Virus genome (UHGV): UHGV-0091782 | Strand: one strand, 5' to 3' | From: a virus | DNA: 38,471 bases | In this document: in pieces, positions 1 through 588 of the stretch | Layout of the letters: every line of letters begins with the position of its first letter | Numbering within the stretch: the first letter of the stretch is position 1 | Translations under genes and position numbers: made by a program | The notes under the pieces: generated by a model | What the model was told of the DNA's origin: nothing | The model's input: the letters and a program-made list of their open reading frames with translations, nothing else | The model's database searches: none

Positions 1-49
1 ATATGATTACCAAGCATACAATGTATAATTATATACACTATTATTGTGA

Positions 50-388
50 TTATAATTTGTTACTGTGCCACTCAAGGGCAATATCTTTGAAGGTGTTGTT
101 TAACTGCGTTTCCCGGGCAATCTTTTCCTCTCGCTTCACTTCCATCAGATCGATTCCCCCAGAGATACCTCTTTTAGCTTCTTCAAGTTTTGCAGGAGCA
201 TCAGCTAAGGTGACCTCAGGATACACACCTAGTGCTAACAGCTTCTCTTTACCAGCTACACGATACTTGAGACGCCAATATTCTCCTCCACCAGGTTTTA
301 CCAGGAGGTACAGACCACCACCATCAGCCAACTTGTAAGCCTTCTCTTTTGGCTTGGCAGTGTCTATTTGACGGGCATTGAGTTTCAC
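50..388 (-). pseudogene. P4-type (IntA-like) tyrosine integrase, N-terminal arm-binding fragment only (112 codons, GTG start); catalytic domain missing
   Basis: ORF-track protein MKLNARQIDTAKPKEKAYKLADGGGLYLLVKPGG...EWHSNKL has the N-terminal signature of P4-family integrases; stop at 47-49 is followed by AT-rich sequence that does not translate into integrase-like protein in any frame. Confidence 0.6.
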
Positions 389-542
389 TTGGGGGTATCT
401 CCACTAAACTGAACAGCAAATCCCCTCAATTGCTTGTAGAGTTTGGGGTACTTAAATAGACGTCAAAAGACTAAAAGGGGCATTAATATACTGATTATAA
501 GAGGTTTTTAAATACTTTAGTAGACTTGGGGAGACGTTAGAA

Positions 543-588
543 TGGTGCCGATAAGAGGAGTCGAACCTCCGACCTTCGCATTACGAAT
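543..588 (-). repeat. att core copy: duplicated 3' 46 nt (anticodon loop to CCA) of a tRNA-Thr(CGU) gene at the prophage/chromosome junction
   Basis: tggtgccgataagaggagtcgaacctccgaccttcgcattacgaat; 34 of 36 nt identical to the partial tRNA at 38436-38471, with the two differences (555, 569) forming a compensatory base-pair change in the T-stem. Confidence 0.7.

Follow-up and report, generated by a model that had tools for sequence, protein, structure and literature searches.

The window, by which we mean the whole stretch of 38,471 nt that was analysed, is 100% identical to positions 2311221-2349691 of Escherichia coli strain Es_ST80_L1_NDM_10_2017 (NZ_CP031215.1), and by its sequence it represents a complete SfV-like prophage of about 37.9 kb together with the edge of a genomic island. 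An earlier note, made from the letters alone, had proposed extending the window on both sides, and this places it between an intact tRNA-Thr gene followed by proA on the right and, on the left (12 kb, RefSeq annotation), the MarR-family gene vatX, vat, an IS1 remnant, a small integrase remnant, and yagU. A direct repeat is visible inside the window itself (541-578 and 38434-38471, 95% identical), its length limited only by the window edge; with the flanking record added it is exactly 46 nt long (543-588 against 38436-38481) and corresponds to positions 31-76 of the intact 76-nt tRNA-Thr(CGU) gene, thrW, which ARAGORN finds in the flanking record just outside the window. The chance expectation for a 23-nt part of this core is 0.00 occurrences per 25 kb.

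The left copy (543-588, minus strand) is a displaced thrW 3' part, reading from tRNA position 76 to 31, and forms the attR core of the prophage; it is identical to the 3' part of the intact thrW in the prophage-free strain 3-72. The right copy is the 3' part of the rebuilt intact thrW and forms the attL core; its portion inside the window (38436-38471, minus strand, tRNA positions 76 to 41) was identified with ARAGORN, its core is identical to free-phage attP, and the intact gene extends past the window edge to 38511. The copies differ at two sites only, window 555 versus 38448 (tRNA position 64) and 569 versus 38462 (position 50), and these two positions form a T-stem pair, which is G50:C64 in the left copy and U50:A64 in the right copy. 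Thus the 46-nt tRNA 3'-end copy that the earlier note had placed at 543-588 is there and matches thrW, and the two core differences do pair with each other in the T-stem as it had claimed. ARAGORN finds no tRNA within the window, and the idea that the left copy is a separate tRNA gene was rejected because neither ARAGORN nor Rfam finds a tRNA there; that it belongs to an unrelated tRNA gene is ruled out, since after position 588 it is followed by the prophage arm and not by a tRNA 5' half.

The integration module of the prophage occupies both ends of the element. On the right, an excisionase gene (36947-37381, plus strand; PHROG 2907 excisionase, E = 1e-50) precedes an intact tyrosine integrase gene of the SfV type, that is, P22-family and thrW-targeting (37258-38421, plus strand; 387 aa; Pfam Phage_integrase, E = 3e-48; also PHROG integrase), for which PGAP places the start at 37303. 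A 14-nt spacer (38422-38435) separates the integrase stop codon from the tRNA 3' end and forms the phage side of attL, and the same flank is present in the free SfV attP. On the left, the P' arm of attP (589-713) is common to the free phages SfV, SfI, SfII, and SfIV, and among E. coli prophages its conservation reaches to about 850-875. Over the 3' end of int, the core, and the 125 nt of arm that follow it, the DNA is 97-98% identical to SfIV, SfI, SfII, and SfV, and the structural genes of the prophage are likewise 97-98% identical to those of SfII/SfI/SfV. The published 46-base core of SfI/SfII/SfV/SfX/P22 is ATTCGTAATGCGAAGGTCGTAGGTTCGACTCCTATTATCGGCACCA, the U50:A64 sequence (PMC3636060), and the right copy is identical both to it and to the free SfV attP. 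An integrase of this type has been grouped with that of P22 through the identical attP core (PMC3636060), and the P22 link of the window Int is a matter of that published grouping. The P22-like integrase that had been noted 14 nt from the tRNA at 38436 therefore stands as to distance and family, and its type can be refined to SfV/SfII/SfI (97-98% DNA identity over the 3' end and attP). The prophage boundaries are fixed exactly, with the attR core at 543-588 and the attL core beginning at 38436; the Xis and Int genes are both intact, and we infer that the prophage may still be able to excise.

A prophage in strain AF16 (NZ_OZ547176.1) is a lambda-like siphovirus by its gpJ, Lom, and tail tape measure genes, and it has the identical Int (WP_001132557.1) and the same attP. 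Since the prophage in the window is of the myovirus type, the int-attP module is common to unrelated virion types.

To the left of the displaced tRNA fragment, and separated from it by a 154-nt spacer (389-542, minus strand), lies a truncated P4-type integrase gene (50-388, minus strand), which has a GTG start, codons 1-112, and a TAA stop (50-52) at its junction with an AT-rich sequence. The spacer is the attL-side arm of the island and is conserved in relatives with and without the prophage; the integrase fragment and the tRNA copy are both on the minus strand in tRNA-then-int order, and the same layout is present at the intact thrW of prophage-free strains. Pfam detects only the DUF4102-type N-terminal domain (Arm-DNA-bind_3, E = 9e-24, residues 3-88) and neither a central nor a catalytic integrase domain in the fragment, which is thus a remnant and not a functional member, and PGAP likewise annotates it as incomplete with the C-terminus missing. 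Over residues 1-112 it shares 92% identity with a 404-aa integrase of strain APEC20/16, in which the arm-binding, central (Phage_int_M), and catalytic (Phage_integrase) domains are all present and which stands at the head of a P4-like satellite element that has Icd-like, RepA-helicase, and further genes. Homology to the intact gene stops at the junction (blastn to the APEC20/16 gene starts at window 50), and the AT-rich sequence beyond it (1-49) belongs to the region of the vat island downstream of vatX. No further homology to this integrase was found by tblastn in the 12 kb of left flank, and this also disposes of an integrase continuing in another frame outside the window. Both the distance of about 150 bp with its tRNA-then-int orientation and the stop after 112 codons at an AT-rich edge, as first described from the sequence, are therefore borne out.

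The sequence on the left belongs to the known vat island at thrW, which has the truncated P4-type integrase at its head and corresponds, as far as the citing paper describes it, to the VAT-PAI adjacent to thrW (Parreira and Gyles 2003, as cited in PMC7545054). In 706 complete E. coli genomes, among them CFT073 and Nissle 1917, this truncated integrase directly adjoins an intact thrW. A distal thrW repeat that would close the vat/P4-type island is absent from the stretch between the island and yagU, within 12 kb, even when 3 mismatches in 23 nt or 2 in 16-24 nt are tolerated, and no distal closing repeat was found in APEC20/16 either, where the P4-like element is intact.

Several smaller features accompany this flank. 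The spacer at 389-542 holds three TTGGGG(T/A) motifs between the start of the P4-type integrase and the tRNA fragment, which the lost integrase may have used as arm-type binding sites, and the corresponding spacer in APEC20/16 has a 12-nt insertion. About 7 kb to the left of the window start, adjoining yagU, is a C-terminal remnant of an SfV-type integrase (51 codons; 5177-5348 of the extracted left flank) that is 88% identical to residues 337-387 of the window Int and keeps the usual end flank (...gatttaaaatgg), though with no tRNA copy after it; it has the appearance of a third layer in the array, and the oldest one.

Two forms of thrW are found intact in E. coli, G50:C64 in 411 records and U50:A64 in about 4,950-4,995, and the two broken pairs, G50/A64 and U50/C64, each occur in 0 of about 5,400 records. 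Outside E. coli, an intact G50:C64 thrW is present in species representatives of Kluyvera, Citrobacter braakii, Kosakonia, Pantoea, Erwinia, Buttiauxella, Superficieibacter, Advenella, and others, and among species-representative genomes 22 of 23 matches to the 46-nt G50:C64 sequence run on into a tRNA 5' half. The 50:64 difference is a genuine compensatory polymorphism and not decay, and the proposal that both copies derive from functional tRNA alleles holds. Fragments of thrW beyond the intact gene are very common, with 8,001 matching places in 5,428 records.

The order of the two elements is given by relatives that lack the prophage. A reconstructed prophage-free site, consisting of the island flank, a G50:C64 thrW, and proA, is present in strain 3-72 and several other strains, where 836 nt match at 100% identity, so that the comparison with an empty thrW locus suggested in the earlier note could be made and yields an intact G50:C64 thrW beside the same island flank. 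Because the island lies directly against an intact thrW in these relatives, the island came first and the prophage later. The sequence of events first proposed, an older P4-type island at thrW with a later prophage, is thus upheld as to order, with the refinement that the prophage entered thrW and not the island. As to the phage side, the free SfV attP has both phage flanks of the window around a U50:A64 core, and among the IMG/VR attP sites with both phage flanks the core is U50:A64 in 31 of 31, with no G50:C64 attP; the four IMG/VR matches of the variant G50:C64 type are integrated proviruses adjoining a tRNA 5' half. Taken together with the prophage-free site, the SfV attP allele indicates that the resident thrW was G50:C64 and that the phage brought U50:A64. 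In a few proviruses the same int flank lies beside an intact G50:C64 thrW, so that either some such phages must carry the other allele or the allele can change after integration.

These observations bear directly on two other ways in which the pair of copies could have arisen. One of them treats the left copy as a decaying pseudo-fragment in which two random mutations happened to fall on paired positions, and this draws on the freedom of displaced fragments from selection and on the displaced copy of APEC20/16, which has an extra T-loop change. Against it, the same 46 nt constitute the 3' part of an intact thrW in the 411 E. coli records and in the 22 of 23 species-representative matches, the nearest prophage-free relative has the sequence intact, and neither single-change intermediate is seen in the approximately 5,400 records, so that the intact-allele counts and the prophage-free relative effectively refute it, and we give it almost no probability. 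The other reverses the assignment, with a G50:C64 phage entering a U50:A64 host by exchange at the extreme 3' end (positions 65-76), so that the left copy would be phage-derived and the right copy the host's own. The final arrangement would look alike, and the proviruses in which the same int flank adjoins an intact G50:C64 thrW could be counted in its favour, but all free attP sites with these flanks are U50:A64 (the 31 of 31 and SfV itself), and a prophage-free G50:C64 site with the same T-variant flank exists at 100% identity. That variant, a single-nucleotide difference 25 nt outside the tRNA, tracks the allele at the occupied and empty sites that were read directly, and attachment sites that run from the anticodon loop to CCA have been classed as anticodon-centred (PMC4383910). 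We therefore consider the reversed assignment very improbable, if slightly less so than decay of the left copy.

The question of where the resident G50:C64 allele itself came from allows a wider choice. On the island side, strain 3-72, which belongs to the lineage of the window, and CFT073 share 567 identical nt that span the truncation junction, and the differences begin 25 nt outside thrW and continue through thrW and on through proA at about 3-5%. CFT073 has the same truncated integrase and P4-type flank adjoining U50:A64. This identity over 567 nt followed by divergence through proA favours a single acquisition of the island, after which one lineage had its proA-thrW segment exchanged by homologous replacement. 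Alternatively, the G50:C64 3' half could have been delivered by the attP of the P4-type element itself, in which case each layer would preserve the allele brought by its predecessor. For this speaks the linkage of allele and flank variant, which read directly is T with G50:C64 in five genomes (four E. coli and Kluyvera cryocrescens) and G with U50:A64 in three (all E. coli), a linkage that the identity classes of the matches to the stacked junction also fit; Kluyvera cryocrescens has the same P4-type flank after its G50:C64 thrW, again with the variant seen in the window. On K-12-like proA haplotypes, furthermore, G50:C64 is confined to sites at which the tRNA borders on a phage integrase flank, so that mobile elements do deliver this allele. 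Set against this are the U50:A64 allele of CFT073 despite an identical truncated integrase and junction (567 nt), the pattern of divergence, which fits one acquisition and a homologous replacement, and the absence of a distal repeat from which the core of the element could be measured. P4-type integrases, as Williams is said to have described in 2002, usually exchange at the T-loop or the 3' end, and such an exchange would leave position 50 behind. Delivery by the P4-type element is in our estimate a possible but less favoured origin, at rather less than even chances. That G50:C64 is tied to one proA haplotype was rejected, since it is found on at least three.

The reading that we prefer for the locus as a whole, and consider highly probable, is a stacked history in which an SfV-like prophage sits in thrW beside the older vat island and a 3' half supplied by the phage has displaced the resident one. 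The phage, its attP carrying a 46-nt copy of tRNA positions 31-76, would have integrated by its own tyrosine integrase into the thrW of an E. coli that already had the vat island there. Strand exchange would have taken place near the anticodon-loop end of the 46-nt block, for both variable positions have been kept together on each side, which places the exchange 5' of position 50 and within tRNA positions 31-49; the exact position of the crossover we infer from this arrangement. Such a location agrees with the identity that extends from the anticodon loop to CCA, which marks the anticodon-centred class of attachment sites (PMC4383910; bioRxiv 10.1101/2020.11.02.365908). Phages of this kind generally replace the 3' portion of the tRNA gene (PMC2629481), and the outcome in the window agrees. 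The working thrW after integration would then consist of the 5' part of the host and the 3' part of the phage (U50:A64), next to int at 38436, and the resident G50:C64 3' part would have been moved 37.9 kb away to 543-588, where it is still joined to the 5' end of the P4-type integrase. At an earlier time the P4-type integrase was presumably cut at codon 112, with the rest of its element replaced or deleted and vatX and vat left behind. The two-base difference would on this account be a standing thrW polymorphism that keeps the 50:64 pair, visible here as the host and phage alleles differed.

The working thrW of this strain is accordingly a composite of host and phage sequence. Strains CFE299 and AF16, which have the same proA haplotype as the window, show the identical hetero-allelic pair, and as the AF16 prophage is a different, lambda-like one with an identical Int, it represents an independent integration event with the same outcome. 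The hetero-allelic lysogens, from at least two independent integrations, thus place strand exchange by the SfV-type Int 5' of tRNA position 50. A broader view would make the thrW 3' half a swappable module, with two T-stem alleles circulating in chromosomes and in phage and island attP sites across the Enterobacterales and with integration able to convert the working allele; this we think distinctly unlikely. Should the alleles differ in tRNA performance or in their use by integrases, integration by a phage could have a direct but hidden effect on host translation or on the entry of later elements.

As an arrangement, the stacked array is a textbook tandem array at a tRNA gene and is already known: the vat island at thrW, SfV-type integration into thrW, and tandem tRNA arrays have all been described before, and the locus opens no new question in this respect. 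The junction of P4-type flank, core, and SfV-type arm is present in 148 complete E. coli genomes, in only 3 of which is the fragment at the junction of the G50:C64 type. The VAT-PAI of Parreira and Gyles, described in 2003, reportedly contains integrase and IS remnants, as does the window locus. It also resembles the window locus in having vat and a MarR-family neighbour between thrW and yagU, whereas here the island and thrW have a whole prophage between them. The SfV/SfI/SfII/SfIV/SfX/P22 module shares with the window the same 46-base core (PMC3636060) and the same flanks on both sides, and the SfV-type module shares the xis-int-attP order, 97-98% identity of int and attP DNA, and integration next to proA. 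The Sf phages, however, are serotype-converting phages of Shigella, whereas the host of the window is an E. coli strain carrying the vat island, and the resident attB here carried the other T-stem allele.

Experiments with SfX and SfI have yielded tandem integration at thrW (PMC3306764), and as in the window the second element enters the rebuilt tRNA gene beside the attL of the first, leaving an att copy between the elements. The Islander database holds 125 tandem arrays among 3,919 islands (PMC4383910). Compared with the SfX/SfI and Islander arrays, the integrase families here differ between the two elements, and the older one has decayed and has no distal repeat of its own: in an Islander-type array each element has its own integrase and its own tRNA fragment, and the prophage has both, while the older island has an integrase fragment only and no tRNA fragment of its own. 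Finally, the cryptic prophage CP4-6 of K-12 uses the same tRNA gene and likewise has a displaced thrW 3' fragment (ptwF, 49 nt, positions 28-76) at the far end of the element, but its IntF lies at the distal end and both K-12 thrW copies are U50:A64. The K-12 IntF was also considered as a relative of either window integrase and rejected, the similarity being undetectable.

Inside the prophage, the RefSeq annotation places an 82-nt tRNA-Pro at 4039-4120 (plus strand), for which neither ARAGORN nor Rfam (E <= 1) gives a match; the sequence folds into a cloverleaf-like structure that is not unusually stable (z = -1.55), and 2041-2127 is a degenerate copy of it with 70% identity. A second repeat of 79 nt (2153-2231 and 4621-4699) is 85% identical, and the ORF at 2757-3740 is bracketed by both repeat pairs. 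At the thrW locus of strains 7/2 and C1 (9001-15500 of the extracted loci), where there is no second thrW fragment, the intact thrW is of the G50:C64 type, and after it come the decayed remnant of an SfV-type integrase and a short island that encodes a 1,069-aa RNA-directed DNA polymerase and an AbiEi/AbiEii pair. The cargo beside the conserved attR arm varies among similar thrW prophages, at the site where the Shigella phages carry gtrABC next to attP. In the window this site instead holds genes for a HEPN-domain protein, a membrane protein, and an Acyl_transf_3 acyltransferase (the HEPN-domain and acyltransferase cargo at about 860-6100), and the cargo proteins next to attR have no PADLOC matches to defence systems. 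At the same place, the prophage of muskdeer13-4 carries a retron Ec67-type reverse transcriptase (8918-12238 of the extracted locus) and that of AF16 carries RnlA/RnlB (1078-4691 of the extracted locus).
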